A stretch of 64,000 bases of DNA from a virus (Duplodnaviria > Caudoviricetes): positions 1 to 64,000 of IMG/VR virus record IMGVR_UViG_3300031760_000032. One strand, given 5' to 3'. Below are positions 4,549-61,322 of this stretch, in pieces; position 1 is the first letter of the stretch, and each line of letters opens with the position of its first letter. The translations under genes were made by a program, and so were the position numbers. The notes below the pieces were generated by a model, which was given only the letters and a program-made list of their open reading frames with translations, was not told the origin of the DNA and made no database searches.

Positions 4549-4560
4549 TATAGAGATGTT
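4549..4560 (-). promoter_or_regulatory. Late-type promoter AACA-N6-TA
   Basis: AACA TCTCTA TA on the minus strand, upstream of 3576..4520. Confidence 0.6.
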
Positions 4561-4589
4561 TTTGACATAAATGCTTAATAGGGTATGTT

Positions 4590-4735
4590 AACATTTAAAT
4601 AAGATGGTATTTAGGCCTCCATTTATACCATCTTGCGGTGAAAGGCATGAATGATTTCCTCTTTGATGCATTGTTTATTCCTCTGAAAAAGTCCTCCATG
4701 GTATCGGGGCCATGGAGGACAAACTTTATTTTTTA
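4590..4735 (+). ncRNA. Candidate small structured RNA
   Basis: AACA-N6-TA at 4590-4601, hairpin 4601-4634, hairpin 4691-4720 then a T tract; no SD-led ORF. Confidence 0.35.
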
Positions 4736-4745
4736 TACTAGAGGA

Positions 4746-4757
4746 AACAAATATATA
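4746..4757 (+). promoter_or_regulatory. Late-type promoter AACA-N6-TA
   Basis: AACA AATATA TA upstream of the DNA polymerase gene. Confidence 0.6.
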
Positions 4758-4807
4758 AATGACTCAGGTAACGTAATACGTAAGCTGAGAGAATGGAGGT
4801 TTTATAT

Positions 4808-6844
4808 ATGAAAGAATTCAATAACGATTTGTTGATTGGTAATTATCCTCCTGGATATGATTTAGCATTGTTTAATACAATCTATCATTATCCGCAGAAG
4901 GATAATAATGGTAAATGGAGACCTGGAGTAATTGACCTTATTATTAAGGATAATGAAACAGGAGAGAAGTTTCTTGAAACTATTGTAGACCCGTTATATG
5001 AGTATTATATGCTTAAACCAGATGTAATGGTGCCGAGTTATAATCTTGAATATGCAATGATGGATGACTGTAAGTGTATATTAGCACCTTATGGACAACT
5101 TCAAAAAGATATTGCTGAACGTCTTGGAGAGCTTGATAAGTTCTGGGAAAATATTCGTAATGGTAATAGAGAAGCAAATAAACGTTTGTGTAATTATCAT
5201 CCTGCAGTATTAATGTCTGATATGGATATTGAAGATAATATTCGTTTTCAATTCTCACACACTTATGCTAATACGTATAAGAAAGCTTCAAAGTCTTATC
5301 TGGATATCGAGGCAGATACAATTCATTGTAAAGGTGACTTTGTAGAGATGGGTGAGTGTCCGATTAATGCGGTATCATTTATTGATGACCAGTCATTAGT
5401 TATTCATTCATTCTTGTTGAGAAATGATGAGAATCCATTAATTGCAGAATTTGAAAAGATGGCTAATACACCAACAATGGAAAGTGAATTAAAGTCATTT
5501 TTGGTAGATGCAGTTGGTGGTCCAGCTAATGCTGATAAGTATAAAGTAAATCAGATGAGAGTACAATTCCATTTCTACGATGAGAAAGATGAATTAACAA
5601 TGCTCAAGCATCTGTTTAATTATATTAATAATCTGAAACCAGATTTTGTATTGGCATGGAATATGGCATTCGATATTCCGTATATCATTCAGAGAATCAT
5701 TAATCTTGGTGCTAATCCAAAAGATATTATGTGTAGTCCAGATTTCAGATTCAAAGAAGTTAAATACTTCATTGATGAAAGAAATGAATTCAATTATGAA
5801 GAACGTAATGACTTTGCAAAGATTAGTTCTTATTCTGTATATCTTGACCAGATGATTCATTTTGCATCTAGAAGAAAAGGACGAGCAGCATTACCATCTT
5901 ATAGATTGGATTTCATTGGACAGATGACTTGTGGAGTTAAGAAGCTCGATTATAGTCATATTACTCATAACCTTGCAGAGTTACCTTATAAAGATTATAA
6001 GACGTTTGTATTCTACAATATCATGGATACAATTGTACAGTATTGTATTGAATTCAAATCTGCGGATATCGATTCAGCATATAATAATGTACTTCTGAAT
6101 AATACACGTTGGAGTAAGATTTATAGACAGACTGTATATCTTAAGAATAGACAAGCTATCTTTAATTATAAGAATGGCTTTATAACAGGTAACAATGTAA
6201 ATGCAAATACACCTAAAGTATCTTTCCCTGGTGCATTTGTAGCAGACCCGAAACTCAATAGCGATTATTCAAAGCTTAGAATTAATGGTCGTCCAGTATC
6301 TATATATGATAACTTAGATGACTTTGATTATAAGGCTCTGTATCCGAGTATTACATCTGAATTTAATATGTCTCGTACAACTCTTATTGGTCATCTTACT
6401 ATACCAGAAAGAGTATATGAATTTGAAAATAGATTCAATAGAGATGAGATTAAGTGGAAGAGAGAAGCTCAGTTTATGGATGATTTACAATCACATAACT
6501 GGATTGAGTTTTTCCATCGTTGGTTCCATTTTGGTAGTTATGAAGACGTATATGATGATGTCATTGAATACTTTACTAAAGTCAAGTATCCTATGGGTGT
6601 ATTGACATATCATGATTTTGATGATGTATCTGGTACTCCTGAAGAAGATAATCGTAATGTATTTGTTCATTGTTCTACAGTAAGAGATTTACAGATTATA
6701 GATGCTATTGCAAGTAAGAAATTGGATTATATGTATCAACCGAGATTTGAGTTTGAAAAGTCTGACTTTAATAACTTTACAGAAATCTTTAATAGTCTTA
6801 AGGATGGTTATCTGTATAGTAAACCTAGACAAGTGGAGGGTTAA
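4808..6844 (+). CDS. Family B DNA polymerase, N-terminal (3-5 exonuclease + motif A) subunit of a split enzyme
   Basis: ExoI YLDIEAD, ExoII WNMAFDIPYI, ExoIII YNIMD, FPGAFV and motif A DFDYKALYPS; motifs B and C absent. Start refined to ATG 4808 behind GGAGG. Confidence 0.85.
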   Translation: MKEFNNDLLIGNYPPGYDLALFNTIYHYPQKDNNGKWRPGVIDLIIKDNETGEKFLETIVDPLYEYYMLKPDVMVPSYNLEYAMMDDCKCILAPYGQLQKDIAERLGELDKFWENIRNGNREANKRLCNYHPAVLMSDMDIEDNIRFQFSHTYANTYKKASKSYLDIEADTIHCKGDFVEMGECPINAVSFIDDQSLVIHSFLLRNDENPLIAEFEKMANTPTMESELKSFLVDAVGGPANADKYKVNQMRVQFHFYDEKDELTMLKHLFNYINNLKPDFVLAWNMAFDIPYIIQRIINLGANPKDIMCSPDFRFKEVKYFIDERNEFNYEERNDFAKISSYSVYLDQMIHFASRRKGRAALPSYRLDFIGQMTCGVKKLDYSHITHNLAELPYKDYKTFVFYNIMDTIVQYCIEFKSADIDSAYNNVLLNNTRWSKIYRQTVYLKNRQAIFNYKNGFITGNNVNANTPKVSFPGAFVADPKLNSDYSKLRINGRPVSIYDNLDDFDYKALYPSITSEFNMSRTTLIGHLTIPERVYEFENRFNRDEIKWKREAQFMDDLQSHNWIEFFHRWFHFGSYEDVYDDVIEYFTKVKYPMGVLTYHDFDDVSGTPEEDNRNVFVHCSTVRDLQIIDAIASKKLDYMYQPRFEFEKSDFNNFTEIFNSLKDGYLYSKPRQVEG

Positions 6845-6846
6845 TA

Positions 6847-7496: not shown

Positions 7497-7508
7497 AACA
7501 ATTTAGTA
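7497..7508 (+). promoter_or_regulatory. Late-type promoter AACA-N6-TA
   Basis: AACA ATTTAG TA upstream of the portal gene; the same 12-mer occurs at 33410 and 49506. Confidence 0.7.
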
Positions 7509-7537: not shown

Positions 7538-9838
7538 TTGGCTAAGAACGATAAGAAACGCTCATCTAATGGGCTTATAAAAAGACTTACTGATACAGTC
7601 CAGAATAATCTGGATAATCTATATCAAAAGACTTATTATTCTCAACCTAGCAATAAACAAGATATCGAGAATATAAAAACAAAACTTGATACATCTATTG
7701 ATAATATCGTTACAACCAATAGAAATAATACTGGTAACGGTACAATGTCTACCTTATATTCTAGAATTCAAGCTGCTCCTATGTTGGGTGGACAAGGTGA
7801 CGAACAAGCAAAGAAACTTGAAGAATTGATTAATGATAATCAGGTTATCGAATCTGGTTTGATGGGATTTATTAATAATACTACTACAGTATTTGACTAT
7901 GATAATAAGATTGATACAATCCTTAAGTATATGCCTAAGTTACAAGAGGCGATTGATACTAGAAAAGATAACGTATTATCAGCTGACCATTTCTCTAAGG
8001 ACTTTATCAATATTACATCATCTAATATCAATAATGATACAGAAACTTATAATGAGCATATCAAATACATTAAAGAAACATATAAGATTCAAGACTTAGT
8101 AGATGAGATTTATGATAAAGCATCTAAATACGGTGAAGCTTTTGTATATGTAGTACCATATAAGAAAGCTGTAGCTAGACTACTTCGTAATAAGAATAAT
8201 ATTAGAGCAGATTTAAATATAAGAGAACAGACTATTATTTCAGAATCTGGTAGTATAAGCATGGAATCGCTACCTGAAGGTCTAACACAAAAAGATTTTG
8301 AAGCTGCTGGTATGGGTGATATTAAACTCGAATGTTATACAGGAGCAATTAATTCAATTGTAGAAAACTGTGTGCGTTTTGAAAAAGCAGCTAAATCATT
8401 GAACGAGATGTCATTGAATTATGAAGGTGCAAATTTCTCAGAAGCAACAATTCTTGAAGCGGCTGAGAATGTACGCGATGTTGTAAAGGGACAATTTGAC
8501 AGGACTATTAAAGATGATTTATCATTTGATGGGTTTGACGACAGAGGTCAAGATGGTCTTGTTGATAAGAATAAAGTAAAGAAGAAAGGTAGAGATGATA
8601 AGTATATTAATGTACCTGGTACTATTATCAGAATACTAGAAAGAAAACACGTTATTCCAATTTATATTGATGAATACTGTTTTGGATATTATTATATTGA
8701 AGTAGAAGGTCCTTATAATCCAGTAGGTGATTATGATAAGATGCAAGACCCTACTATGTCTCTTAAGGGTTCTAACTCTATTTTATCTACTAATAGTATG
8801 ATGGACCAAACTCAAAAGCAGAACAATATTATTCGTTATCTATCTAATCAGATTTCTAATTTTATTGATGCTAAGTTTATTAATACTAACCAAGACCTTA
8901 GACAAGAGATTTATACTATTCTTAAGTATAATCAAGATAATAATTCTTCTAAGATGAATAAGATTAGAGTTACATTTATTCCTCCTGATGATATGGAACA
9001 TGTATACTTCAAAATGAATAAGGATACACATAGAGGTATCTCTGATTTAGATAAGTCTCTTTTCCCAGCTACATTATTCTCTAGTATGTATATTACTCAT
9101 ACTATCTGGAATATGACACGTGCTCAGGATAAACGTGTATACTATGTAAATCAGAATGTAGACACTAATATCTCTAAGACATTATTAAATACTATTAACC
9201 AGATTAAGAAAGGTAACTTCGGTATTCGTCAGATTGAGAATATCAACCATATTCTTAATATAACTGGTATGTTTAATGATTACATTATTCCTAGAGGTCC
9301 TGGTGGTACTCCAATTGATTTTGAAGTAATGCAAGGTCAATCGGTAGAATATCAAACTGAATTGATGAATATGTTAGAAGAGGCTGCAGTAAATGCAACT
9401 GAAGTTCCTATGGAAATGATTCAGATGCGTAACTCTGTAGACTATGCATCACAGTTAACAATGTCATCTTCTAAGTTCTTACGTAAAGTATATAATCGTC
9501 AATCTAAGTTTCAGAAAAACATTACACATATTATAAATAATATTTATAATAACGAGTTTGATGATAATATTACATTAAATGTAGTATTGCCACCACCAAT
9601 GTTCTTAAATATTACTAATACAAACCAGATGATGACCAACGTAAATGAATACTCTCAGTCAGTAGCACAATTGATTCTTGACCCAGATGAAGAAGAACCA
9701 ATCAAGAATGAAGTTATCCGTGAGATTAATAAATTCAATCTTGGTTCTTATCTTAATATCCCTGAGTTGGAAGAGATTGCACATAAAGCTAAACAACGTA
9801 TGGCTGCAGAAAATAACGATGAAAACGGAGAAGAATAA
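7538..9838 (+). CDS. Portal protein (T4 gp20-like fold, jumbo-phage type)
   Basis: KYGEAFVY, RAQDKRVYYVN and NDYIIPRGPGGTPIDFEVMQG match the T4-type portal motifs RAPERRIFY and EDYWLPRREG. Confidence 0.8.
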   Translation: MAKNDKKRSSNGLIKRLTDTVQNNLDNLYQKTYYSQPSNKQDIENIKTKLDTSIDNIVTTNRNNTGNGTMSTLYSRIQAAPMLGGQGDEQAKKLEELINDNQVIESGLMGFINNTTTVFDYDNKIDTILKYMPKLQEAIDTRKDNVLSADHFSKDFINITSSNINNDTETYNEHIKYIKETYKIQDLVDEIYDKASKYGEAFVYVVPYKKAVARLLRNKNNIRADLNIREQTIISESGSISMESLPEGLTQKDFEAAGMGDIKLECYTGAINSIVENCVRFEKAAKSLNEMSLNYEGANFSEATILEAAENVRDVVKGQFDRTIKDDLSFDGFDDRGQDGLVDKNKVKKKGRDDKYINVPGTIIRILERKHVIPIYIDEYCFGYYYIEVEGPYNPVGDYDKMQDPTMSLKGSNSILSTNSMMDQTQKQNNIIRYLSNQISNFIDAKFINTNQDLRQEIYTILKYNQDNNSSKMNKIRVTFIPPDDMEHVYFKMNKDTHRGISDLDKSLFPATLFSSMYITHTIWNMTRAQDKRVYYVNQNVDTNISKTLLNTINQIKKGNFGIRQIENINHILNITGMFNDYIIPRGPGGTPIDFEVMQGQSVEYQTELMNMLEEAAVNATEVPMEMIQMRNSVDYASQLTMSSSKFLRKVYNRQSKFQKNITHIINNIYNNEFDDNITLNVVLPPPMFLNITNTNQMMTNVNEYSQSVAQLILDPDEEEPIKNEVIREINKFNLGSYLNIPELEEIAHKAKQRMAAENNDENGEE

Positions 9839-14472: not shown

Positions 14473-14484
14473 TATCTTTATGTT
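14473..14484 (-). promoter_or_regulatory. Late-type promoter AACA-N6-TA
   Basis: AACA TAAAGA TA upstream of the sheath-tube operon. Confidence 0.65.
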
Positions 14485-15222: not shown

Positions 15223-15287
15223 GTATATCGCCTCCTATCTATATCAATTTATTACTTGGATGTTAAAGGTATAAAAATTGTGGGTTA

Positions 15288-16067: not shown

Positions 16068-16135
16068 ATATATTATTAACGTGTAAGAGGTTACCGTAAA
16101 CGGTTATAAAGACTCCACAACCTCTTGGAGGTAAT

Positions 16136-16654: not shown

Positions 16655-16687
16655 GAAGGCGGGACTTTACATCCCGCCTTCTTTTTT
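16655..16687. terminator. Bidirectional terminator
   Basis: GAAGGCGGGA / TCCCGCCTTC between convergent genes. Confidence 0.8.
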
Positions 16688-17708: not shown

Positions 17709-17726
17709 ATGTCTTCACTCTCCTTT

Positions 17727-18167: not shown

Positions 18168-18182
18168 ATATTAACACCTCCT

Positions 18183-20728: not shown

Positions 20729-20748
20729 ATACATTAACCTCCTTTGTA

Positions 20749-21309: not shown

Positions 21310-21407
21310 ATAGAATATCCTCCTTTATAATCAATTTTATATGTATGTTTTGTTAGAATAGATAGGTGGAACTTTATAATAAAATGCTCAAAAGGAGGTA
21401 TTCTCAT

Positions 21408-23246
21408 ATGCTTATTGACCAAGCTAAATTTATATATGACTTTACTACACCAGATGTAGAAGTAACAACAGAAGGTGCTTTATTAAATGAAGCAGCAGCT
21501 ACTTCAGAACATTTTAAAACTGAAGTACTTGATGTAGATAAGTTTATCAAGAATAATATACTTAAAGAAGTATCTAATCCTGTATTCTTTAATGGTCCAA
21601 CTCCAACAGAAGATGGATTGTTAAGTAATGAAATCTTTGGTATCACTAAAGCTGAACGTGCTGGTATATATGCCTATATTAATCTAGGTGGTCAGTTTAT
21701 TCAGCCATTAATCTATAAGACATTACTTAAACTCAATGGTAAAATCGCAGATGTAGTAAATGGTACAGATTATTTTATCATTAATGATAAAGGAGAACTT
21801 GTACAGAGCGATGATGGTGATACTGGTATTGACTGGTTAAAGAAAAACTTCTCTAAGATTAAGTTTAAGAAGAATGAATCTGCATCTAGAAATAAGAGAA
21901 TTGATTTTATTGAGAAAGTAAAAAATAAGATGTGGGTAGATAAGTGGGTTGTTATTCCTGCTTATTATAGAGACGTAGATACTAGAGATGCTGGTATCGG
22001 TGTAGGTGAAATCAATAAACTCTATAGTAGCTTGATAATGGCTACAAAAGCACTTAAAGAAACATCTGGTTATGGTCTTACATTAAGTGATGTCACTAAA
22101 GCAAGAGTACAGAATATCTTAGTACAGATTTTTGACTGGTTTGGTAATGGTACTACTATTAATGGACAAGAAACTCCTGCTAACTTACCTGGTAAGATGG
22201 GTCTTATTAAACGTGGTACATTGTATAAGACTATTGACTATTCTGCTCGTCTAGTTATGTCTGCTCCTGATGTAAGTGGAGAAGATATAGATGACTTGAT
22301 GATTGACATGGACCACTGTGCATTACCGCTTGCTGCAGCGCTTTGTTGTTTTAAGCCATTTATCATGTTCTGGTTAAGACGTTTCTTTGAGAATAGATTT
22401 GCTGGTAAATTAGAGTATCCTATTATGATTAATGATAAAGAGTCTGTCATGGTTCCTCTAGTAGACTATCAAATTGCATTTTCTGATATAGAGATTGATA
22501 AACAGATTGAACGTTTTATTCATGGCTATAGTAATCGTTTTATTCCTATTGAAATTCCAGTAGATAAAGAAGAGTTTGCTAGACGTGCTAAGAATCATCA
22601 AATAGTAGGAGCTATTTCTGGTAAAGAAATTAAAGATTTGAAAAATTTAAATTTTTGGATGGGATTTACTGGATATAAACTTAATAATTCAGAAGAATAT
22701 AAAGAGACTAAACAAGATTATTCAGAAACTCTTAAAGTAAATAGACGTATTACATGGTGTGATTTATTCTATATGGCAGCATGTGATGTTACATCAGATA
22801 AGATGTGTCTTATTACTCGTTTCCCTATTGACTCTTATCTTAACCAATATCCTACAAAGGTTAGAATTAAATCTACAGTTAAAACTGCACCTATGGTTAT
22901 TCAGTCTGACTTTGAAGATAATATGAAATTATATAAGTGGTATCCTGTTATTGAAGATACGGACATTAACTCTAATACATCTCCAGTATTTGAAGATACT
23001 CTTTCTATTAGTAATGGTCTTATTGAAGCTATGGGTATGGACTATGATGGTGATACAGCAATTGTTAAACCAGTGTACACAATTGAGGCTAATCAGGAAT
23101 GTGAAAAACAAGCTAACGCAAAGATTCAGGTTCTTGGTATGAATGGCTTCACTACAAGAGGTGTATCAAAAGAAAACATTCTTTGTCTATATGAACTTAC
23201 TATTCATCCAGATAAAAGTGTTAAGTTTGTTAATCCAGAGTTCTAA
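21408..23246 (+). CDS. RNA polymerase beta-prime N-terminal/catalytic subunit (probably virion RNAP)
   Basis: GLLSNEIFG, VIPAYYRD, GKMGLIKRGTLYKTIDYSARLVM, LITRFP, catalytic GMDYDGD (NADFDGD equivalent); no Cys zinc-binding domain. Start refined to ATG 21408 behind AGGAGG. Confidence 0.85.
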   Translation: MLIDQAKFIYDFTTPDVEVTTEGALLNEAAATSEHFKTEVLDVDKFIKNNILKEVSNPVFFNGPTPTEDGLLSNEIFGITKAERAGIYAYINLGGQFIQPLIYKTLLKLNGKIADVVNGTDYFIINDKGELVQSDDGDTGIDWLKKNFSKIKFKKNESASRNKRIDFIEKVKNKMWVDKWVVIPAYYRDVDTRDAGIGVGEINKLYSSLIMATKALKETSGYGLTLSDVTKARVQNILVQIFDWFGNGTTINGQETPANLPGKMGLIKRGTLYKTIDYSARLVMSAPDVSGEDIDDLMIDMDHCALPLAAALCCFKPFIMFWLRRFFENRFAGKLEYPIMINDKESVMVPLVDYQIAFSDIEIDKQIERFIHGYSNRFIPIEIPVDKEEFARRAKNHQIVGAISGKEIKDLKNLNFWMGFTGYKLNNSEEYKETKQDYSETLKVNRRITWCDLFYMAACDVTSDKMCLITRFPIDSYLNQYPTKVRIKSTVKTAPMVIQSDFEDNMKLYKWYPVIEDTDINSNTSPVFEDTLSISNGLIEAMGMDYDGDTAIVKPVYTIEANQECEKQANAKIQVLGMNGFTTRGVSKENILCLYELTIHPDKSVKFVNPEF

Positions 23247-24948: not shown

Positions 24949-24980
24949 ATAAAGTCCTCCTTTCCTAGATTATTGGTATG

Positions 24981-26174
24981 TTAAGACATGAGCTTTTTAA
25001 TGCTATACTCAAGTACAAATATTAACATAGGTATTGTGTAGAATAAATCAACTGTAGGTTTAAAATCAATAGCTTCTAATAATGGTATAATAGAAGAATC
25101 AAGTTTAACATCGTTGAAATAGTCTATGATAATATTATAGTATGCTTTTGGGTCATTCGGTAATAGCTTTTCTTTAAATTTAACGCTACTAATCAATTGT
25201 GCATCTACTGGATTAAACAATGATAGACCAAAATCTTTATGTTTAATAATGTAGTAATCATCTGCTACAGTAGAGAATAACGAATACTGGTCTTGTATAA
25301 GCTCAGCATTACAATTTTGATTAGTAAACTTCTCTACAGTTTTAGTCTCTAAAGCTCTAAATAGACTCTGATTATAATCAATAGAGAAAGTTCTTGGAAC
25401 TGGTACTTCATGATTAACATAGATATACTCAGTAGAGCCAGATAAGATATCATTTCTAGATAAGAATTCAATCATGTAAGGGTCATAGAGATTACCATAA
25501 GGACCAGTATAAGTAAATGTCTGTACAGAGTCATTATAGAATAGAGAGATATAATAATCCTTCATTTGTATAAGCAGACTATCTAATGTATCAATACAAT
25601 CATAGATAGTTTCTTTTACTATAGCATTATAACTTGTACCGACATTATTGATAATCATTCTATAAGTTTCAGTAACCTGGTTATCAATATAAGATTCACC
25701 TGTTTGGTCAATTTGTGCATCAAACTTATAGACGTTATTGTTATTATCTATAGTGTCATACGATACTGAATTGACTCTATAGATAAATTCTTTACCAGCC
25801 TGTTTAAGAGTAAAATGGTCGCCTTGATAAGGAATCCATGTATTAGGAAGCACAATACCACTAATAGATGGAGGTGCAGTAGATAAACCATCTTCATCAT
25901 ACTCTAAGTCAATTTCAATTCGAATACCTTGAGCATAAAAGACTGCATCTTTAATGAGTTTATAACGAATTGGACTATTCTTACCAATTGCTACATATTC
26001 TGCTCCAGTACCTTCATCTAGTGTAGTAGCATCTTTATCAATATTACGCCAATCACAAATAACAGGAGACATATTATTGAATACATAGTTAGCAGTTTTT
26101 ACTTTCTGTATCGTACCAGAAGTAAGAGCGTCAATAGCCCTAGCATATGACTTATTAATAAACTTGCCACTCAT
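24981..26174 (-). CDS. Putative virion structural (neck/head-tail type) protein
   Basis: 397 aa; SPIRY, GIVLPNTWIPYQGDHF pattern seen in jumbo-phage structural proteins; late promoter at 26201-26212. Confidence 0.5.
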   Translation of the reverse strand: MSGKFINKSYARAIDALTSGTIQKVKTANYVFNNMSPVICDWRNIDKDATTLDEGTGAEYVAIGKNSPIRYKLIKDAVFYAQGIRIEIDLEYDEDGLSTAPPSISGIVLPNTWIPYQGDHFTLKQAGKEFIYRVNSVSYDTIDNNNNVYKFDAQIDQTGESYIDNQVTETYRMIINNVGTSYNAIVKETIYDCIDTLDSLLIQMKDYYISLFYNDSVQTFTYTGPYGNLYDPYMIEFLSRNDILSGSTEYIYVNHEVPVPRTFSIDYNQSLFRALETKTVEKFTNQNCNAELIQDQYSLFSTVADDYYIIKHKDFGLSLFNPVDAQLISSVKFKEKLLPNDPKAYYNIIIDYFNDVKLDSSIIPLLEAIDFKPTVDLFYTIPMLIFVLEYSIKKLMS

Positions 26175-26249
26175 TTATATACCTCCTTGTATGGTTATAT
26201 TATTGAAATGTTCAACAAACAAAAAATAAGGGGTGAAGTAAATCACCCC

Positions 26250-29902: not shown

Positions 29903-31483
29903 TCATACTTGAATAATAAATCTTAAGACTTCATCGATAAGAATATCTGATTCCATCTTAATATCCATACCATCAATATCCTTGTTATAATAATCTATAA
30001 CTTGGAATTTGCTACTAAGCATTGTTGCTACCAATGCTAGTATCTGTCTAATCTTCTTTTCGTCACCATTATACTTTTTCATGATTTCGTTATAGTATTC
30101 AGACTGTTCAAGTTTGATAAGCTCTTTCTTACAGAGAGTTGTTCTTTGAGAAATCTGAATAACATTACTTGCAAAAATATAAGGTAACAGACGCATACCA
30201 CTATTAAGCATATGACGTTTACCTGCGATTATAAGCGTAATATATTGGTCTGCATTAATAGAATTGATGCTTACTGTATCACCAAAATACTTGTAAAACA
30301 TGTTATTCACAAGATTCTGTTGGAATCTATTGATAACAGGTCTTCCATGTTTGGTGAGTTCTCTCTTATAATAATCAATCTCTGCTTGTTCAAATGGTCC
30401 AAACTTTGCAACGATTGATTCCATAATCTTCTCACATCTGAAGTCATTCTGAATAAGAAGAGATTCATCTGTCTTAATAAGATGAGCCTCGAACTTATCA
30501 ATCTGAGAAGTATTATCTTCTCCATCTCTTTTACTACTACTGAGAGATGAATAGTCGTATTCATAACTGATATCAGAAATATTATACTTGATATTATTAC
30601 GAACACTTGATATGTTATAACTCACTATATTACCATTATAGGTATACTTAGGCATTACTTGCATAATAGTAGTATTGATAGCATCATTCGAATTAATGGT
30701 AGGTGAGTATCCTCTAATCTCACTAATAGTCCAAAGAATCTTATTTGTCTTATAGTGAGATTGCATTGTTGTGCTTGCAGTTTCATAAAGCTTTGCATAC
30801 ATATCTGCAGGCTTTAATCCTCTAGCAGCCATTTTATCGAAGTCTACATATACTTCGAATAACCAATTGTATACAGTAAAGATAATCTCATGAATCTTCT
30901 CTGTAGAAGTGATTCGATTTCTGTATACAAAATGCATAATCAGTGGGATAAGCATATTCATAAAGAGACTCATCTCCATAAAATACTTACCGTGATTATT
31001 ATTATACTGAAGTCCCTCATTACTTTTATTCTTGTAATTCAGGTCAAGCTGGTAATTTGTACTTACCATATTCCATGCTTTATTATACATAGAATCTGAC
31101 AGGATATATGTTTTAATATCGCTTAAGAAATCTTGAAGAGTATAAGCTCTAATAAGATTCCCATTATTATCAATAAATCCTGTGTCCATAAGCTGCTTCA
31201 TTCTAAACATATAGAACAGCAGCTCATGTTCTGAATCGAAATACTTTTCAAAGTAATTCATATACTGACAGATGTGAGCTCTAACTTCATCAGAGTTATA
31301 ACATCTTTTCGGGGTCAGCATAAAGCTGTCCAGTACTTTGCTTTCTTCAATACCGAAGAAGCGAGATACTGGTAAGATAATTGCATTCTTACATTCTCTA
31401 AAAATTCTTTCCTCCTCTCTCGGATACCATTCATCTACTCTAGGTAGAAATGATGGTGACATTAATATTTCGTAAAGTTCCAT
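29903..31483 (-). CDS. Probable non-virion RNAP promoter-specificity (sigma-like) subunit, AR9 gp226 / phiKZ gp68 family
   Basis: 526 aa; FFG...KRCY, YQLDLN...LQ, LIPLIMHF, KLYE...ILWT, SQIDKFE and C-terminal DEVLRFIIQV match the AR9 gp226 pattern as recalled; early-type promoter at 31526-33. Confidence 0.65.
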   Translation of the reverse strand: MELYEILMSPSFLPRVDEWYPREEERIFRECKNAIILPVSRFFGIEESKVLDSFMLTPKRCYNSDEVRAHICQYMNYFEKYFDSEHELLFYMFRMKQLMDTGFIDNNGNLIRAYTLQDFLSDIKTYILSDSMYNKAWNMVSTNYQLDLNYKNKSNEGLQYNNNHGKYFMEMSLFMNMLIPLIMHFVYRNRITSTEKIHEIIFTVYNWLFEVYVDFDKMAARGLKPADMYAKLYETASTTMQSHYKTNKILWTISEIRGYSPTINSNDAINTTIMQVMPKYTYNGNIVSYNISSVRNNIKYNISDISYEYDYSSLSSSKRDGEDNTSQIDKFEAHLIKTDESLLIQNDFRCEKIMESIVAKFGPFEQAEIDYYKRELTKHGRPVINRFQQNLVNNMFYKYFGDTVSINSINADQYITLIIAGKRHMLNSGMRLLPYIFASNVIQISQRTTLCKKELIKLEQSEYYNEIMKKYNGDEKKIRQILALVATMLSSKFQVIDYYNKDIDGMDIKMESDILIDEVLRFIIQV

Positions 31484-31538
31484 ATAAATACCTCCTATTC
31501 ATATAGAGATTGTATTTACGCAATAATAGTATACAATC

Positions 31539-33401: not shown

Positions 33402-33445
33402 AATACAGAAACAATTTAGTAATATATGAAAGGAGGTTATCTCCT

Positions 33446-36131: not shown

Positions 36132-36238
36132 TATATACGATGCTAGACTTTGGTCTAGCATCTTTCTTTTGTATTATATATTATATTAGCGATAGTACAT
36201 AACACTATCGTAAAATATTTTGAAAGGAGCATGTTATC

Positions 36239-36865: not shown

Positions 36866-36941
36866 ATATAAAGGGTGGTTAACTCCACCCTTTGTTTTTT
36901 GGTATCTTTAACATTTAAGTAATATGAAGGGAGGAGATTAT

Positions 36942-37718: not shown

Positions 37719-37802
37719 AATAATCATTATTTGTATATTATATTTGTGATAGGACCCAGTTCCTATCACAAATATTTTATCTAGAAAGGAGGTGTCTTCA
37801 TA

Positions 37803-38783: not shown

Positions 38784-38928
38784 TATGTCTAAACAGACAT
38801 ATTATAAGTTATTAAGAAAATACGTCAGCGTACCAATAGAGTACGCTGACGTTCATTTTTCCTTATTTTTTGTTTTAACGAACAGATAACATTGAAGTAA
38901 ACCAAATAAGAAAGGAGTCGTGTTTATC

Positions 38929-48110: not shown

Positions 48111-48260
48111 TCGTAATATAAAGAAGACTGGCTACTTGTCAGTCTTCTTTTTTTGCTTTGTATATTATTATTGTGATATGGGAGTCATAAACCCTATCCT
48201 GTGGAGGACCGCTAGCCCATAGAGGCACTATAAATTTATTATGGTCCAAGAGCAGTACCT

Positions 48261-49445: not shown

Positions 49446-49545
49446 TATTGTTTTAGAAGGGCTGTTCCACTCCAGCCCTTCTTTTTTGTCCTCAACACAT
49501 AATTTAACAATTTAGTAATATTTATATATAAAGGAGTGTGTCCCT

Positions 49546-52355: not shown

Positions 52356-52418
52356 TATATGAGGGGTGAGTAAAATCACCCCTAAACATTTTATTAAAAT
52401 ACCAAAGGAGGTAATATT

Positions 52419-52805: not shown

Positions 52806-52850
52806 TACACACGAAACAAAATAATAATAATTTATAAGGAGGAATCTATC

Positions 52851-53105
52851 ATGTTTGATAAGATGAGAAAAGCAGTATACGACTATGTTGTATCACACCT
52901 TGATAAGACCGATGAGGTTTCTATCTCACTTAATGATGTTTACATCATATGGACTTGTAAGACACTTCAGAACTGGAAGGCTTGTATTAGTACTACTCTT
53001 CCCGATGGTATGTACTATGAGTGTACATATAATGGAGATACTAATGAGCTCTATCTGGATGCTTATAAGAAGTTCGAAAACAAAGTCATTAAAGATTTTA
53101 ATTAA
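52851..53105 (+). CDS. DUF6275-like phage protein
   Basis: VYIIWTCKTLQNWKACIST..PDGMYYECTYNGD..ELYLDAYKK. Confidence 0.75.
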   Translation: MFDKMRKAVYDYVVSHLDKTDEVSISLNDVYIIWTCKTLQNWKACISTTLPDGMYYECTYNGDTNELYLDAYKKFENKVIKDFN

Positions 53106-53737: not shown

Positions 53738-53770
53738 TCCCCACACCTTGATTGGTGTGGGGATTATTTT
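53738..53770. terminator. Bidirectional terminator
   Basis: TCCCCACACC / GGTGTGGGGA between convergent genes. Confidence 0.8.
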
Positions 53771-56111
53771 ATTTCCAAGAGTATCCATTATTGTTTTTAT
53801 AATCATTACTATCCATAGATTCAGAATAGAAGTTATCAATAGCTCCTAGCATACTATATCCATTATCTTCCCCTTCTAATTGTTCGAGAGGAATATTAAA
53901 TTGTCTAGAGTATGCTTCTTTACCAACTTTAGTTGCTAGTATTTGAGCCATTGCCATATCATTTTCCATCTTTTGTTGTTCTAAGAACTGACTATATAGT
54001 TTTGTCTTATCAAGCTGTTTTAATTGCTCGTTAACCATATCATCATGTTCAAGATTTTCTATATCTCTAACAATAGATATTTCTTCTGTAGCATTAAAGT
54101 CTTGGAAAATTTCTTGTGCTTCATCATCTGCTGTTCTAAGTGTAGGAATAGAGATGTGCCAATTCTCTCTAACATTCTTTCCATAATAAATAGGATAGAT
54201 AGAATATAAATAAGAGAATGTACTATCGTCATGACTATTAGCAGAATGGTCAATACGACCTGTCTTCTTAATCTCAAGATTCTTTAATTCTTCATATAGA
54301 ATTGGAGAAATGAATTTATCATAATGGTCTCTTACACGGTCTGTAAGTAAGTCCATTAACTGTTCTCTTACAGTACCAGTGTTATCTACACCATATACTT
54401 TAGTAAGTTGCTTTCTCTTATGAGACCTTAATCCATCAGGACGTTCTTCTATAGTACGCTCTTTAATCTCATAATATAGATTATTTCTAATCTTAGATTT
54501 CATTAACTTAGCTAGTGTACCAGTACCTACACCATTACGCTCGATAGTGATTAACGAATTAGGTAAATAGTTTAATACAAGATTATATATTACTGTAGCT
54601 AAATCAACTGGGTTAATATAGTTACAGTTAAAGTCTGCAACAAGTTTAGTAGTCTTAGAATCTGTAACAGAAATTGCAGAAGAGTCCTTAGAATAACCTG
54701 CTGCAACGTCGACACCAATCAATGTCTTATCTCTTGGGGATATCTCAGAATAGATATTGAACAGGAAGTTAGAGATATAAACCTGTTTAATTGGGTTACG
54801 TACATATCTCTGTACATTTCTAAGTTCCTCTTGTGTAAATGGACAATTCTCGGAAGATGTAGCCCATTCAAGTAAGAATTCACGTCTGATGTCAGTCCAT
54901 TTTTGGTTCTGTTCTTTGATTCTTTCCTTAAGCCATTCTTCAGAATATCCAAGCTGTTGATAAGTAGTTCTAATATATACAAAGATAGACTTCTCGTTTG
55001 CATTTAATGTCTCTGTAAGTTTCTGTAGAGAGAAATCATACCAAAGTTCTGAGAATGGAGTCATCTTATTCTTAAGGTCATACATATATTGACCTTCTTC
55101 TGTAGTTAAGAAACCAGGTGTAGATGTAAGGCATAGACCATGAGGTGCTCCATTCATTCTACAGTTTCTAAACGCAGTAGTCAATGCAGGCATACCGTTT
55201 TGTAAGGATTCTTCTAAGTATTGGAAGAACGCAGACTCGTCTATCCAACAGTTAGTAATAGTTTGACCACGAAGTAAAGATATAGCTGCCGTTCTATTAC
55301 GTGCCATTGGAAGAGCCTTGATATTATTAAAGTTAATCTTATGCTGGATATATTGTACTGTGTTAGATGCTTTAAGTTTCTTACCATCTACACCGAATGC
55401 TTGGTCAAATCGTAAATAAGATGGTAATGCTTTAATAATATCTTTAAGAGAAGATAAGTTACGCTTAGCATCATCATGTTTCTTATTAAGGAATATCATA
55501 TTAGCATTTCGAGAACCAAAGTTATATACCCAAGAATACCATACTTCAGTAGCAACAGTTTTACCTGTCTGACGAGGTTGTTCTTGATAAATATTAAGAT
55601 TCAATGTAAAGCAAAAGTTTAGTGCTAAGTTACCTCTATCAAGTCTATATCTTACATAAGGTCCACCCTGACTCTGTACTCTAACAACTTCTCTTATATA
55701 ATACCAAAAGTTTCTCTGACATTCTAGAAATACTTTTTGTTTTGTATAAGGGTCTAAGTAAGGGTCATGTGGGTCTATATATGCTAAGTCCTTATCATAT
55801 AATAATAGATGGAATTTATTATTTTTTATACCTTTAGCCTTTAGGTAGTAGTGCATATCTAAGAAAGACTGGTTTTTTGTATTCATTTGATAAAAGATAG
55901 ATACATATCCAGAACCATCATATCTTCTATCTTCTTCTACACCATTACTATTTTTATTAGACATGAAACTTAATAATGGAACATATCTACGTTGGTTAGA
56001 ATTATTTGGTATAGGATTCATAGTAGACAAATTATCTGGTTGATTATACTGTACATCAGTATTATCTTCTTTTTCTTCTATGATAGTAATACCAGTATTT
56101 ACTACTTTCAT
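53769..56111 (-). CDS. terL: Terminase large subunit
   Basis: Walker A EQPRQTGKT, Walker B WIDES, TSTPG coupling motif, RNase H-like IGVDVAAG and HDD; promoter variant AACT-N6-TA at 56142-53. Confidence 0.9.
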   Translation of the reverse strand: MKVVNTGITIIEEKEDNTDVQYNQPDNLSTMNPIPNNSNQRRYVPLLSFMSNKNSNGVEEDRRYDGSGYVSIFYQMNTKNQSFLDMHYYLKAKGIKNNKFHLLLYDKDLAYIDPHDPYLDPYTKQKVFLECQRNFWYYIREVVRVQSQGGPYVRYRLDRGNLALNFCFTLNLNIYQEQPRQTGKTVATEVWYSWVYNFGSRNANMIFLNKKHDDAKRNLSSLKDIIKALPSYLRFDQAFGVDGKKLKASNTVQYIQHKINFNNIKALPMARNRTAAISLLRGQTITNCWIDESAFFQYLEESLQNGMPALTTAFRNCRMNGAPHGLCLTSTPGFLTTEEGQYMYDLKNKMTPFSELWYDFSLQKLTETLNANEKSIFVYIRTTYQQLGYSEEWLKERIKEQNQKWTDIRREFLLEWATSSENCPFTQEELRNVQRYVRNPIKQVYISNFLFNIYSEISPRDKTLIGVDVAAGYSKDSSAISVTDSKTTKLVADFNCNYINPVDLATVIYNLVLNYLPNSLITIERNGVGTGTLAKLMKSKIRNNLYYEIKERTIEERPDGLRSHKRKQLTKVYGVDNTGTVREQLMDLLTDRVRDHYDKFISPILYEELKNLEIKKTGRIDHSANSHDDSTFSYLYSIYPIYYGKNVRENWHISIPTLRTADDEAQEIFQDFNATEEISIVRDIENLEHDDMVNEQLKQLDKTKLYSQFLEQQKMENDMAMAQILATKVGKEAYSRQFNIPLEQLEGEDNGYSMLGAIDNFYSESMDSNDYKNNNGYSWK

Positions 56112-56242
56112 GATATAATAACACTCCTTTCTTAAGATTTTTATTAATAAGTTGACCTAATCAGGTACGATTAGAGTTATAAATTACAATACCATAAACA
56201 AATAAGTAAAATATTATGGCTAAAAGCCAGGAGGTAAGTATT

Positions 56243-57055
56243 ATGAATAATAACAATTACAACGGTCAGAACAACAACGGTGGAAATGATATCTTTACTC
56301 CCACTACTCGTTCAGCTTACAGATTCTTTAACTCTGAATCTGAAATTGACAACACTTCCATGAGTTTCAATTTCTGGAACTCTCTGCTCAAGATTACAAT
56401 GAATCCTATCATTGTAAAGGAAGGTTCTGCTAATAAAGTAGATACAGATAATCATGTAGATATTTATCTGTCTCCTTCTAAGGCTAAGATGCTTCTGTAT
56501 TGCGTAAAGGAATTCAGAAAGAATCCTGATGCTTATACAAACATCGGTGTTAATACAAACAAGGGCATTATCTTTATCGCAAATGGTGATAAAATGTTTG
56601 GTCACGGTGGAGTTTGTGTAGTAATCAATCTTATTAACAATGAGACTGGTGAAAAGGAAGCAGAAGCAGCATATGAGTTTAACACTAAGGACCTGTATGC
56701 TATTACAAATTACATGGGTGGTTCTGACTTCGGCAAGGATTCTGGTTATGCAGATAGTCTTGAACTCGACATGTTTGAAAATCTACTTGTACAGTTTATC
56801 AATGCATCTACAAATGCAGTAGCAGCATCTATCATGGAGACTGGTAAGTTTAATGAAGCAAGACAGTTTAGCTTCATTAAGGATGTAAGAGAGAAGCTTG
56901 GAATTTCTAAGAGTGATGGAAGTAAGAATTATAATCGTTCTAGCTGGTTCAATAATAATGGTAATGGTTCTTCTTCTGTATCTTCTGAAAGTTCAAGTAA
57001 TAATTCTTCTACCTATGAAGACGTTATGAATGATATCGCATCTATCATGGACTAA
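56243..57055 (+). CDS. Hypothetical protein, possibly ssDNA-binding
   Basis: Beta-rich core, N/S/G-rich linker, acidic C-terminal tail (YEDVMNDIASIMD); late promoter 56197-208. Confidence 0.4.
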   Translation: MNNNNYNGQNNNGGNDIFTPTTRSAYRFFNSESEIDNTSMSFNFWNSLLKITMNPIIVKEGSANKVDTDNHVDIYLSPSKAKMLLYCVKEFRKNPDAYTNIGVNTNKGIIFIANGDKMFGHGGVCVVINLINNETGEKEAEAAYEFNTKDLYAITNYMGGSDFGKDSGYADSLELDMFENLLVQFINASTNAVAASIMETGKFNEARQFSFIKDVREKLGISKSDGSKNYNRSSWFNNNGNGSSSVSSESSSNNSSTYEDVMNDIASIMD

Positions 57056-57983: not shown

Positions 57984-58763
57984 ATGGCAATTGATTCTAT
58001 TAAAGTAGAAGAAGTTCAACCTGATGGTAGTAAGAAAGAAATAAAAGTAGATAAGGCTGCAGCTGGATATCATAATTATCTAGTTATGTTTAATACTCTT
58101 ATTGACCTTGATTTTGCTGTACTTAGAATGGTGCAAGCTGAGTATAATAATCCTAAGTTTGTAGACCAGAAAGTTATGCATATGACTACTAAAGAGGTTA
58201 AGTTTCTTCTTATCAATAGAGAAGACTCTAACCCATTAACTATCTGCTTTAAAGATAAGATTATTGCTGATTCTATCTATAAAGAAATCATGTCTACCAG
58301 ATATGGTGATTTGCTTAAGGAAGATAAGTATATGGCAATCACTGGCATATTCTTCTTAATATCTGTATATGCTGCTATGGATAATACACATGTTACTGTA
58401 GTATGTGGAAATGAATTAGAAGAGAAAATCATAAGACGTTATCATAAAAACATTAACGTCAAAGTAGTCAATGAGTTAACTGACATCAATGTAAATGATT
58501 ATACTGAATTCATTTTCAAAAGTAAGTATGATGTATATAAGTTTAAGCAAAAATTCATTGAGAAACGACTTTTGTTATTAAACTACAAATTCAATGTCTA
58601 CTTTAAAGATGGTATCTTATTCTCTGATTTAGAGCTTGGACATTGGTTATGGGAAACTGGATTCTCTAAAGCTGCAATCATTGATACTTACAGCAAAGAA
58701 GACGATGACTATGCTACTCTGAAATTCAAAAGAGTAGTAAAAAAGAAACCAGAAAACAAATAA
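57984..58763 (+). CDS. Hypothetical protein (possible degenerate HAD-like fold)
   Basis: 259 aa; LVMFNTLIDLDF resembles a HAD motif I lacking the first Asp. Confidence 0.5.
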   Translation: MAIDSIKVEEVQPDGSKKEIKVDKAAAGYHNYLVMFNTLIDLDFAVLRMVQAEYNNPKFVDQKVMHMTTKEVKFLLINREDSNPLTICFKDKIIADSIYKEIMSTRYGDLLKEDKYMAITGIFFLISVYAAMDNTHVTVVCGNELEEKIIRRYHKNINVKVVNELTDINVNDYTEFIFKSKYDVYKFKQKFIEKRLLLLNYKFNVYFKDGILFSDLELGHWLWETGFSKAAIIDTYSKEDDDYATLKFKRVVKKKPENK

Positions 58764-58795
58764 ATAATATTATATATTTAAGGAGGAACCGAAAT

Positions 58796-60499
58796 ATGGT
58801 TTATTCAAACGTAGTAGAAAAGGAAGCTCTGAGACGTGTTCAGAGCGAAACACTCGCTGTAATCTCAGATGCACTTCTGAAGTCTTTTGGACCTTATGGT
58901 TCTAATTCTATTATTGGTAAGGATGGCGCACTTTCTAGATATACTAAAGATGGTCATACTATTCTTTCTAATCTTCAGTTTGTAGACCCAATTGCAAAGG
59001 CTGTACATGCTGATATCGAAGAGGAAACACTTGCTCAGGCTAAGAAGGTCGGTGATTCTACAACAAGTATTACACTTCTTTCTTCTGCTATCTTTGATGC
59101 TCTTGCTGGTTATGAAAAAGAGCACAATTATAGACCAGCTTCTATCGTAAAGGCTTTCAAGAATGTAGCTGAAATGATTAAGAATAAGATTAAGGATTAT
59201 GGTAGAGAAGCTACTATCGAAGATATGTATAATATTACTCTTATTGCTACTAACGGCGATGAGAACCTTGCTAAGATTCTTAATCAGGTATACAAAACAT
59301 ATGGTCTTGATGTATATATTGACGTTAAAGCATCTATGAATGGTACTACCTATCTTAAGGAAATCAATGGTATGACAATGGAGTGTGGTTTCCTTGACCC
59401 TACTCTTATTAACGATACTACAAAGAATACAGTAGACATTAAGAATCCTAAGATTTATGCATTCAAGGACCCAATTGATACAGCAGAGATGGGTATGTTC
59501 CTGGATGCTATTCTGGTAAAGAATATTCTTAAACCTATCAGTGAAAAGAAGCCTGAGAATGTAGTACCCACAATTATCATGGCTCCGAGAATCTCCAGAG
59601 ATTATTCTGCATATATGGATACTCTGATGGCTTCTATTGCTCAGACACCTGCAGCAAATCGTGGTATTCTAAATATCATCACTGATATTCAGGGTTGCGA
59701 TATGGAACAGTTCGAAGATATTTGTGACCTTTGTGGTTGTAAGTATATTAAGAAGTATCTTGACCCTGAGATTCAGAAGAAGGATATCGAATCTGGTCTT
59801 GCTCCTACACCAGATAATATCGAGACTTTTGCTGGTGAAGCAGAACTTGTATCTTCTGATGCATATAAGACTACTTTTGTAAATCCTAAGAAGATGTTTA
59901 ACTCTAATGGTGAGCATTCAGAGCTTTTCAATCAGAGAACAGATTATCTTCAGAAGCAGATTGATAAGCTGACAGTAGAAGGTAATACTACTACAGAAAT
60001 CTATACTCTTAAGAAGAGACTCAATTCTCTTAAGGGTAAGATGGTTGAAATCTATATCGGTGGTGTTACTATCGCAGACCGTGATGCAGAACGTGACCTT
60101 CTTGAAGATGCAGTACTTAACTGTCGTAGTGCAGCAATTAACGGTGTAGGATATGCAGCAAACTTCGAGGGTTATAGAGCAGCGCTGTCTGTAACAGAAG
60201 ATGAGCTTACTGGTATTGAAGCTGATATTGCAGATATTCTGGTTAAGCAGTATTATGAAATCGTATATGCTTTATATGATAGTGTAGGAGAAGAGGAAAT
60301 TGATAATCCTCATGAGATTATAGAACAGTGTATCGTTCATGGTTGTCCTTACAATATTACTACTGGTAAGTATGATGGTAAGGTTCTAACAAGTATTGAT
60401 ACAGATATCTGCATCATTGATACTATCTCTAAGATTATCACTATCATGGTAACTGCAAACCAGTTCATTCTTCCTACAATCAATATGAATAATTATTAA
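58796..60499 (+). CDS. Phage GroEL-like chaperonin
   Basis: SFGPYG, YTKDGHTIL, VGDSTTS (GDGTTT equivalent), IYIGGVT...LLEDAV; 567 aa. Confidence 0.9.
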   Translation: MVYSNVVEKEALRRVQSETLAVISDALLKSFGPYGSNSIIGKDGALSRYTKDGHTILSNLQFVDPIAKAVHADIEEETLAQAKKVGDSTTSITLLSSAIFDALAGYEKEHNYRPASIVKAFKNVAEMIKNKIKDYGREATIEDMYNITLIATNGDENLAKILNQVYKTYGLDVYIDVKASMNGTTYLKEINGMTMECGFLDPTLINDTTKNTVDIKNPKIYAFKDPIDTAEMGMFLDAILVKNILKPISEKKPENVVPTIIMAPRISRDYSAYMDTLMASIAQTPAANRGILNIITDIQGCDMEQFEDICDLCGCKYIKKYLDPEIQKKDIESGLAPTPDNIETFAGEAELVSSDAYKTTFVNPKKMFNSNGEHSELFNQRTDYLQKQIDKLTVEGNTTTEIYTLKKRLNSLKGKMVEIYIGGVTIADRDAERDLLEDAVLNCRSAAINGVGYAANFEGYRAALSVTEDELTGIEADIADILVKQYYEIVYALYDSVGEEEIDNPHEIIEQCIVHGCPYNITTGKYDGKVLTSIDTDICIIDTISKIITIMVTANQFILPTINMNNY

Positions 60500-60505
60500 T
60501 AATAC

Positions 60506-60545
60506 AAAAAAAAGAACGGGCTCATTAAGAGCCCGTTCTCTTTGT
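60506..60545. terminator. Bidirectional terminator
   Basis: AGAACGGGCTC / GAGCCCGTTCT with an A tract. Confidence 0.8.
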
Positions 60546-60551
60546 TATTTG

Positions 60552-61007
60552 TCAAATTAAATCATTAAATGAACCACAGAAGCGGTTCATTTTCTGAAGT
60601 GAAACCCACATATCGAGAAAGCATTCTTCTGATTTTTTATTACCATCTACCGCTTCTTTAAAAAGACAGAAGATGGTATTTTCAACTTGCTCACCGAAAG
60701 GACGAGCAAGCTTTATAATCGCCGAGCAATAGCAATCGTCGGCGTTAACTACTCCTGAAAGCTCCCTAATTAAGCTAGGGAACTTATTCGAGTGGCTCTT
60801 AGCATAACGAGCTACATTAATGATGTCTCTACCAGTTCCGCTGCATATGAATTCTACAGCGTTTTCAAAATTGTAATTATCATCATTGGCAGAGTCCTCG
60901 ACTCGCTCGACTACAGCGTTTCCGTCTCTGCAGACATAGACGTATCCATCTACTACAAAGACGGACACATTACTTGTTTTTACTACAACCTTAACTTCTC
61001 TAGCCAT
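60552..61007 (-). CDS. Hypothetical protein, GC-richer than its neighbours
   Basis: 151 aa, AAAGGAG SD; frequent CG-containing codons. Confidence 0.65.
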   Translation of the reverse strand: MAREVKVVVKTSNVSVFVVDGYVYVCRDGNAVVERVEDSANDDNYNFENAVEFICSGTGRDIINVARYAKSHSNKFPSLIRELSGVVNADDCYCSAIIKLARPFGEQVENTIFCLFKEAVDGNKKSEECFLDMWVSLQKMNRFCGSFNDLI

Positions 61008-61229
61008 ATTTATGACTCCTTTGGATAAATTTACTCCTATTTCAGGAGCATAGATAGTTGTTCTGGTTTTAAAGGCTATTCCAGAAACCTAGGACGCAAC
61101 TCCTCTTAGATAGTCTCTCGGTACTTTTAGTGTAGTATGGCTGTCGCTAAGCCTCTACCGAGAGTCCGTGAGTAAAAGATAATGAGTGGTTCGATGTGAC
61201 GGCATCGAGATTTATTATCTCTTACTCAC
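61008..61229 (-). ncRNA. Candidate multi-hairpin leader or ncRNA
   Basis: Early promoter TATATAAT at 61234-41 (minus), then several stems before the 151 aa ORF. Confidence 0.35.
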
Positions 61230-61322
61230 TTATATTATATACATACCAAATATTAAACTTTTACAATCTCGTTATCTTTGATTTCCAGAACATTGAAATA
61301 ATACTATGAAAGGAGGACCGTT

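Follow-up and report, generated by a model that had tools for sequence, protein, structure and literature searches.

Predicted AR9-type late promoters in an uncultured jumbo phage whose DNA probably contains thymine

The non-virion RNA polymerase (nvRNAP) of phage AR9 is the textbook case of promoter reading from the template strand with a requirement for uracil, and this requirement has been proposed as a means of avoiding the transcription of host DNA. The nvRNAP holoenzyme of the AR9/PBS1 phages (Takahashivirus) is composed of gp105, gp089, gp270 and gp154 together with gp226 and reads the template strand (PMC5312081, PMC5449584, PMC9209446; PDB 7S01, 7UM0, 7UM1). The late consensus, written for the non-template strand, is A(-11)ACA-N6-T-A/G(+1) (PMC5312081, PMC7598289), and 94 of the 118 late start sites mapped in AR9 carry this motif (PMC5312081). 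Promoters of this type stand ahead of late genes (virion, packaging and lysis) and of some replication genes with continuous expression, and the template-strand element that is recognized, 3'-UUGU-5', also functions in single-stranded DNA. Thymine at template position -11 or -10 abolishes recognition, with Val206 of gp226 clashing with the 5-methyl group, and a V206G enzyme accepts thymine (PMC9209446). Early genes are served by the virion RNA polymerase (RNAP), for which the published consensus is AAATATATATTAT-N6-G(+1) (PMC5312081). Close gp226 orthologs occur in phages that are shown or presumed to contain uracil (Fraser et al.). Here, a motif of the late type, AAC(A/T)-N6-TA, is described in the first 64 kb (the window) of the 79,787-bp IMG/VR record IMGVR_UViG_3300031760_000032 (CheckV completeness 36%). 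The copies that stand 32–47 nt before start codons are best explained as the late promoters of a ~224-kb jumbo phage that is related to AR9/PBS1, has its own nvRNAP and most likely contains thymine DNA, a reading to which we assign a probability of roughly 0.8.

Judged by sequence comparison, the source is a distant, uncultured relative of AR9/PBS1, namely a jumbo phage with a genome of ~224 kb, since an IMG/VR relative (G001) that is complete, with direct terminal repeats and a length of 223,528 bp, aligns collinearly to the entire record with ~90% nucleotide identity. The GC content of the window is ~33% and the ribosome-binding sites of its genes are of the strong AGGAGG type. When the open reading frames (ORFs) of the window are compared with the AR9 genome by tblastn, matches of 21–39% identity are obtained to the DNA polymerase gp132, the portal gp128, the tail tube gp127, the virion proteins gp125, gp165, gp112 and gp115, the primase gp225, gp226, gp227, the terminase large subunit (terL) gp121, the GroEL-like gp228 and gp233. 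Gene order is likewise kept for primase-gp226-gp227 and for gp125/tube/portal.

An earlier reading of the letters alone (hereafter the sequence-only reading) had listed 17 copies of AACA-N6-TA, all of which are exact matches on the strand that was given, and the AACT-N6-TA that it placed ahead of terL is borne out too (Table 1). Its description of the sites as lying just upstream of genes in the right orientation holds for 15 of the 17, which are co-oriented with a start codon 32–47 nt downstream, when the starts 36942 and 56243, supported by a Shine-Dalgarno (SD) sequence, are used at two of them; the copies at 4590 and 14473, however, lie 203 and 103 nt away. A further copy at 24971–24982 (-), absent from that list, is also canonical, and the canonical-position sites of the window number 16 for AACA and 3 for AACT. 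Conservation extends beyond the search pattern, with an A at +12 in 17 of 19 sites and an A at +14 in 15 of 19, and in G001 the AAC(A/T) and TA are kept at every canonical site. The genes behind the motif include those for the portal, terL, the gp125-, gp165-, gp112- and gp115-like proteins, the GroEL-like protein and the DNA polymerase, as well as an amidase gene just past the window. Between positions 30001 and 50000, 30 terminator-like hairpins of the intrinsic type are found compared to 6.0±2.5 in shuffled sequence; several of these stand directly upstream of late promoters, resulting in a cassette layout of terminator, promoter and SD.

Enrichment, the check that the sequence-only reading had suggested, is found in intergenic DNA relative to both shuffled and coding sequence, but not in the window as a whole. 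Counted over both strands, the entire window contains 63 copies of AACA-N6-TA, whereas 75.2±9.1 are expected from dinucleotide shuffles. As the whole-window count is at chance, the claim rests on the location of the copies. The intergenic DNA of the 79.8-kb record contains 22 copies compared to 8.0±2.8 expected, a count that none of 1000 within-region dinucleotide shuffles reaches, and the density is 3.27/kb in intergenic compared to 0.67/kb in coding DNA. The spacer is specific: the 22 intergenic copies with N6 compare with 6–14 for the other spacers in the range N2–N10. When AR9 is put through this procedure as a positive control, the motif is detected before 72 of 316 ORFs, compared to 20 of 91 here, a signal of equal strength.

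The motif is also conserved across relatives. In a survey of 80 IMG/VR loci that encode gp226 relatives, comprising 1918 genes and considering positions -62 to -12, AACA-N6-TA precedes 224 genes, while the control motifs precede 41 (N5), 41 (N7), 39 (N8) and 25 (reverse orientation). Of the 47 distinct regions upstream of orthologs of the gp165-like virion gene, 28 contain it, at protein identities as low as ~31% and with diverged flanks, and at the site 24971–24982 the sequence AACATACC(A/T)ATA is kept in all eight distinct orthologous upstream regions. By contrast, AACA-N6-TA occurs in only 1 of 61 regions upstream of the gp226 gene, where most relatives have the early motif; in AR9, gp226 likewise has an early promoter. 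From this pattern of virion genes and gp226 gene across relatives it follows that the assignment of genes to promoter classes is conserved and matches AR9. Among the AR9 orthologs, 13 of 18 have AACA-N6-T[AG] at a similar position, and AACA-N6-TA precedes gp128 (portal), gp121 (terL) and gp233 in that phage.

These data bear on the idea that the motif is no promoter, being instead an element of leader-RNA processing or translation, or a by-product of AT-rich intergenic DNA. In favor of this idea, the motif always lies in the would-be 5' leader and its genome-wide count is at chance. However, the observed count is not reached by any of the dinucleotide-matched intergenic shuffles, and both spacing and orientation are specific. 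Furthermore, the distribution is class-specific, the motif standing before virion genes but missing, throughout the clade, upstream of the gp226 gene, and the motif agrees exactly with a promoter consensus that was mapped by experiment (PMC5312081). A non-promoter origin is therefore considered very improbable.

The likely reader of AACA-N6-TA, by analogy with AR9, is the product of a gene in the window for a 526-aa homolog of gp226, the sigma-like subunit that confers promoter specificity on the nvRNAP. This protein matches phrog_25005 in PHROGs (E 6.8e-19), and tblastn retrieves AR9/PBS1-type phages only, at the gene annotated as gp226, 'non-virion RNAP subunit'. At E ≤ 0.001, it has 625 metagenomic relatives (clusters), many of them on contigs of at least 200 kb. 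A single-sequence phmmer search of the PDB gives no match, but a profile of 27 relatives aligns over the full length with 7S01_A (E 1.6e-26), and a profile-profile comparison (hhalign) with seven isolate homologs gives a probability of 99.84%. In addition, an AlphaFold model (pLDDT 84.8) has AR9 gp226 (7S01_A) as its best Foldseek match (E 8.8e-16), with phiKZ gp68 (8QUE_B) in third place (E 2.8e-6). A virion RNAP beta'-N gene is present in the window as well (Table 1), and G001 encodes homologs of all four split nvRNAP core subunits (gp089, gp105, gp154 and gp270) in addition to virion polymerase subunits. Pfam RNA_pol_Rpb1_2 has no match on the 79.8-kb record, the subunits being too divergent for it; they were found by PHROGs and by tblastn with AR9 proteins.

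Reading by the host RNAP, with a housekeeping sigma factor or with a phage sigma factor or activator in the manner of T4 late transcription, would make the motif a kind of extended -10 element, and its downstream half, RTAAT, is indeed AT-rich and resembles a -10 hexamer. No conserved -35-like element is present upstream of the sites, however, and the sigma-70 consensus (TTGACA, 16–18 nt, TATAAT) occurs 127 times compared to 107±10 in shuffled sequence and not at the sites. The invariant part of the motif is instead the AACA at a fixed distance of 6 nt, which is the signature of the AR9 nvRNAP, and both polymerases are phage-encoded. It is thus hardly probable that the host enzyme reads these sites, and transcription by a phage nvRNAP is the better explanation.

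A second motif, TATATTAT-N5-TG or close variants of it, is found 49–100 nt before genes in the window (at 16069, 36177, 37734 and 48161, and ahead of the gp226-like gene); a further early-type motif lies at 63837–63851 of the record. From the annotated early promoters of AR9, the consensus AAATATATATTAT-N5-TG is derived. The likeness lies in the TATATTAT core followed by N5-TG before early-type genes, including the gp226-like gene, whereas the upstream AAA of AR9 contrasts with a T/G-rich stretch (TTGTATATTAT) here and a hairpin usually follows the sites of this phage, at the predicted 5' end of the transcript. In G001, the early motif stands ahead of the nvRNAP beta-C and beta'-C genes, as the AR9 scheme requires.

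Judging from gene content, the AACA-N6-TA system described here probably works on ordinary thymine DNA and not on uracil DNA, because the closest complete relatives make their own thymidylate. ThyX is encoded by G001 and four other relatives (G002–G005); in G001 it scores 116 bits against Pfam Thy1 and 97 bits against the equivalog model TIGR02170, which has a cut-off of 87.9. Among 46 near-complete relatives, ThyX is present in 34 and a ThyA-family gene in 10 of the other 12, which amounts to 44 of 46, whereas neither is found in any of the five AR9-group isolates (AR9, phiR1-37, Staphylococcus phage S6, LPJP1 and JD-Fnp4), of which AR9, phiR1-37 and S6 are deoxyuridine-DNA phages. The published genomic criterion for uracil DNA is that neither thymidylate synthase nor Thy1 is encoded (PMC7824862). 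Furthermore, tblastn at E<0.01 detects in G001 no homolog of Ugi, dNMPase and dCMP deaminase (gp104, gp151 and gp221), proteins of the kind that support uracil DNA in AR9, although small, fast-evolving proteins could escape this search.

The residues of the gp226 pocket, in which AR9 discriminates uracil by Val206 together with Ile207 and Tyr210, have diverged as well. Val206 of AR9 is invariant in the seven isolate homologs, which are 29–59% identical to AR9 gp226, while the same column in the clade holds 11 different residues (I, T, V, L, G, K, D, Q, P, A or R) or a gap, and Ile249 occupies it in the protein encoded here. AR9 Tyr210 aligns to Ile253 and is not kept, although the neighboring Trp208 has an invariant counterpart, Trp251. 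Which residue occupies the Val206 column follows no clean pattern with respect to thymidylate synthase, be it its presence or its type; Gly occurs commonly in one ThyA subclade, whose genomes are closely related. A pairwise alignment of AR9 gp105 with the beta-N subunit of G001, uncertain at 24% identity, places Lys opposite the pocket residue Lys375 and Asn opposite Arg363, and is too weak to count.

The sequence-only reading had proposed that the transcription logic of AR9, uracil dependence included, operates here. Its AR9-like part is upheld by the consensus, the gene context, the gp226-like subunit and the nvRNAP core encoded by G001. The dependence on uracil is not supported, in view of the thymidylate synthase genes of 44 of 46 near-complete relatives including G001, where ThyX exceeds the equivalog cut-off in a collinear genome, of the three AR9 functions not detected in G001, and of the variability at Val206 together with a Tyr210 that is not kept. 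On these grounds, a deoxyuridine genome, in which the gp226-like holoenzyme would need uracil at template positions -11 and -10 as in AR9, is considered unlikely.

Several observations do agree with such a genome, and some of these count against thymine DNA. The promoter consensus is identical to that of AR9 and the specificity subunit is homologous. Ile249 is beta-branched and as bulky as Val, so that it would clash with the thymine methyl group if the pocket geometry of AR9 held. No trimeric dUTPase (PF00692) is present in G001–G005, other dUTPase families not having been searched; two negative determinants of uracil DNA have been published, and lack of dUTPase is one of them. The 79.8-kb record itself contains no thymidylate synthase, though it represents just 36% of the genome and does not cover the ThyX region; ThyX is seen in relatives only. 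The promoter reading as such has weak points of the same kind: the nvRNAP core genes, too, are seen in relatives only, as this 36%-complete record does not cover their regions, and reading of the motif by the nvRNAP is taken over from AR9. Finally, within genes the motif is about as frequent as control motifs: in a test for selection against spurious copies, synonymous-codon shuffles of G001 give z values of -2.4 (sense) and -1.8 (antisense), and the control motifs behave alike.

Two observations on thymidylate genes in the relatives may be added. Two IMG/VR genomes of 201 and 225 kb (G012 and G013) are the sole gp226-bearing near-complete relatives among the 46 without ThyX and ThyA; if any member of the clade has true uracil DNA, these two would be the candidates. 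In G001, an insertion of ~130 residues separates the N-terminal from the C-terminal Pfam segment of the 387-aa ThyX (encoded within 36145–38109), whose gene lies directly downstream of that for a 265-aa P-loop protein (GGDNVGKTT) with no family match, which is possibly a nucleotide kinase; the pair may form a module for dTTP supply.

Put together as a mechanism, the virion-packaged RNAP would, by homology with AR9, read the early promoters (TATATTAT-N5-TG), which would drive several genes, including that of the gp226-like subunit and, in G001, genes for core subunits of the nvRNAP. The newly made nvRNAP would consist of the split beta and beta' subunits and the gp226-like sigma-type subunit. 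Its start point would be the A in TA, which follows the first A of AACA at a distance of 11 nt, and the resulting leaders of 21–36 nt would contain a Shine-Dalgarno sequence and precede genes for virion structure, packaging, lysis and some replication functions. Since the phage DNA is most likely thymine DNA, unlike that of AR9, the gp226-like subunit would have to accept thymine at the positions for which AR9 requires uracil, or else recognize the element differently.

The features of the window are collected in Table 1. Three other copies of AACA-N6-TA are probably coincidental: that at 36201–36212 lies inside the hairpin after the early promoter 36177–36191, the one at 46107–46118 is overlapped by a start codon, and the copy at 61051–61062 is not conserved in G001.

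Table 1. Coordinates of predicted promoters and RNA polymerase genes in the window; all promoters and start sites are predictions
Feature	Position	Strand	Context
AACT-N6-TA variant late promoter	1798..1809	-	43 nt before start (1766) of AR9 gp115-like virion protein gene; identical in G001
Late promoter	4549..4560	-	40 nt before gene 3576-4520 (-); predicted transcription start 4549; G001 keeps core, spacer changed
AACA-N6-TA match, uncertain	4590..4601	+	203 nt before polymerase gene start; hairpin follows; conserved in G001
Late promoter	4746..4757	+	47 nt before B-family DNA polymerase gene 4793-6844 (AR9 gp132-like)
Late promoter	7497..7508	+	Just past terminator hairpin; 41 nt before portal gene 7538-9838 (AR9 gp128-like)
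AACA-N6-TA match, uncertain	14473..14484	-	103 nt before 1100-aa gene 11079-14381, at tail-sheath position
Late promoter	15253..15264	-	42 nt before gene 14500-15222 (AR9 gp125 virion protein-like)
Early-type promoter, TATATTAT-N5-TG	16069..16083	+	67 nt before gene 16136-16453
Late promoter	21338..21349	-	40 nt before gene 20749-21309, head of BspA-type leucine-rich-repeat (LRR) operon
Virion RNA polymerase beta'-N gene (AR9 gp145-like)	21366..23246	+	phrog_2986, E 4.8e-82 (beta/beta' subunit)
Late promoter	24971..24982	-	34 nt before gene 24463-24948
Late promoter	26201..26212	-	Past terminator; 38 nt before gene 24981-26174 (AR9 gp165 virion protein-like)
Gene for 526-aa AR9 gp226 homolog	29903..31483	-	Assigned by profile, structure and gene order
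Early-type promoter (TATACTAT-N4-GCG)	31519..31533	-	50 nt before gp226-like gene
Late promoter	33410..33421	+	Past terminator 33368-33393; 36 nt before gene 33446-33877
Early-type promoter	36177..36191	+	Before gene 36239-36865
Late promoter	36910..36921	+	Past terminator 36868-36895; 32 nt before SD-supported start 36942, AR9 gp112 virion protein-like
Early-type promoter	37734..37748	+	Before gene 37803-38048
Late promoter	38888..38899	+	Past hairpin 38822-38852; 32 nt before gene 38920-39432
Early-type promoter	48161..48175	+	Before AIPR-domain gene 48261-49445
Late promoter	49506..49517	+	Past terminator 49455-49482; 40 nt before gene 49546-50346
Late promoter	52385..52396	+	34 nt before gene 52419-52805
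Late promoter	52815..52826	+	36 nt before gene 52851-53105
AACT-N6-TA variant late promoter	56142..56153	-	42 nt before start (56111) of terminase large subunit gene 53769-56111
Late promoter	56197..56208	+	46 nt before SD-supported start 56243 of gene 56216-57055
Late promoter	58755..58766	+	41 nt before GroEL-like gene 58796-60499 (AR9 gp228-like)
Late promoter	61289..61300	+	34 nt before gene 61323-62789 (AR9 gp233-like)
AACT-N6-TA variant	63351..63362	+	38 nt before gene 63389-63832

Some of the genes in the window deserve mention in their own right. The G001 ortholog of gene 33446–33877 matches the AR9 baseplate wedge gp232. The late operon behind promoter 21338–21349 (16686–21309, -) encodes BspA-type LRR proteins (LRR_5, 449 bits, at 18872–20734), and this array matches many shifted positions at ~117.4–120.5 kb of G001, as expected for an internally repetitive array. 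The least conserved stretch lies at ~37.7–49.4 kb, corresponding to 137.9–148.7 kb of G001, where identity is 76–82% or the sequences do not align, compared to 89–96% in the flanks; it looks like a variable accessory region with mostly small early-type genes. An AIPR-domain protein of the abortive-infection type is encoded at 48261–49445 behind an early-type promoter. Within 41251–45244, the anaerobic ribonucleotide reductase NrdD is split into a part with the ATP-cone and NRDD profile positions 1–103 (41251–41988) and a part with profile positions 164–562 (43979–45244), separated by ~2 kb with small ORFs, one of which (42793–43284) has a weak helix-turn-helix match. The split is probably due to one or more introns or to an intervening mobile element; in Rfam, no group I intron reaches the gathering score in this region, and Rfam and tRNA scans of the window give no matches. 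Searches of the phage collection with 20 kb by megablast and with the 1100-aa ORF by tblastn give no match either.

Beyond this phage, it appears quite likely that a large uncultured clade of jumbo phages (at least 625 gp226-like clusters, with genomes of ~200–340 kb), having in common the AACA-N6-TA late promoter and the gp226-type sigma, runs the 'uracil-only' promoter system of AR9 on thymine DNA; the literature searched contains no description of gp226-type systems in phages that encode thymidylate synthase. If so, the dependence on uracil would be a specialization of the AR9 lineage and not an intrinsic property of a system whose promoter and sigma-like subunit also work in phages that make thymidylate. 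Either the -10/-11 pocket of the gp226-like subunit would have been remodeled, as a natural counterpart of V206G, or the AACA would be read on the non-template instead of the template strand, and such phages would keep their polymerase off host DNA by other means. Natural gp226 variants would then offer a direct and testable route to the structural basis of the discrimination between uracil and thymine. For practical use, the pair of motifs, TATATTAT-N5-TG for early and AAC(A/T)-N6-TA for late genes, allows temporal gene classes to be assigned in uncultured jumbo phages from sequence alone.

Compared to phiKZ, the nvRNAP predicted here shares the split-subunit architecture of the nvRNAP with gp68 in that phage, but the late consensus of phiKZ, T(-3)ATG(+1), is unrelated, its thymine DNA is housed within a phage nucleus, and core assembly there requires gp68 (PMC7598289, PMC7618050). 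The AR9 late system has the same tetranucleotide, 6-nt spacer and TA, placed in the same way before virion, packaging and lysis genes and serving ~20% of genes in both phages. A homologous gp226-like subunit in a conserved gene order, split beta/beta' homologs in G001 and a division into two classes, with an early motif like that of AR9, are shared in addition. However, the proteins are just ~21–35% identical, +1 is nearly always an A here, with A also preferred at +2 and +4, and AACT is a frequent variant; start sites and strand are predictions in this phage. Furthermore, its close relatives encode ThyX and lack detectable counterparts of the AR9 Ugi, dNMPase and dCMP deaminase, and neither Val206 nor Tyr210 of gp226 shows conservation. 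The AR9 system already includes the promoter, the polymerase and both promoter classes; this phage differs from it in the likely thymine context and the relaxed pocket residue.

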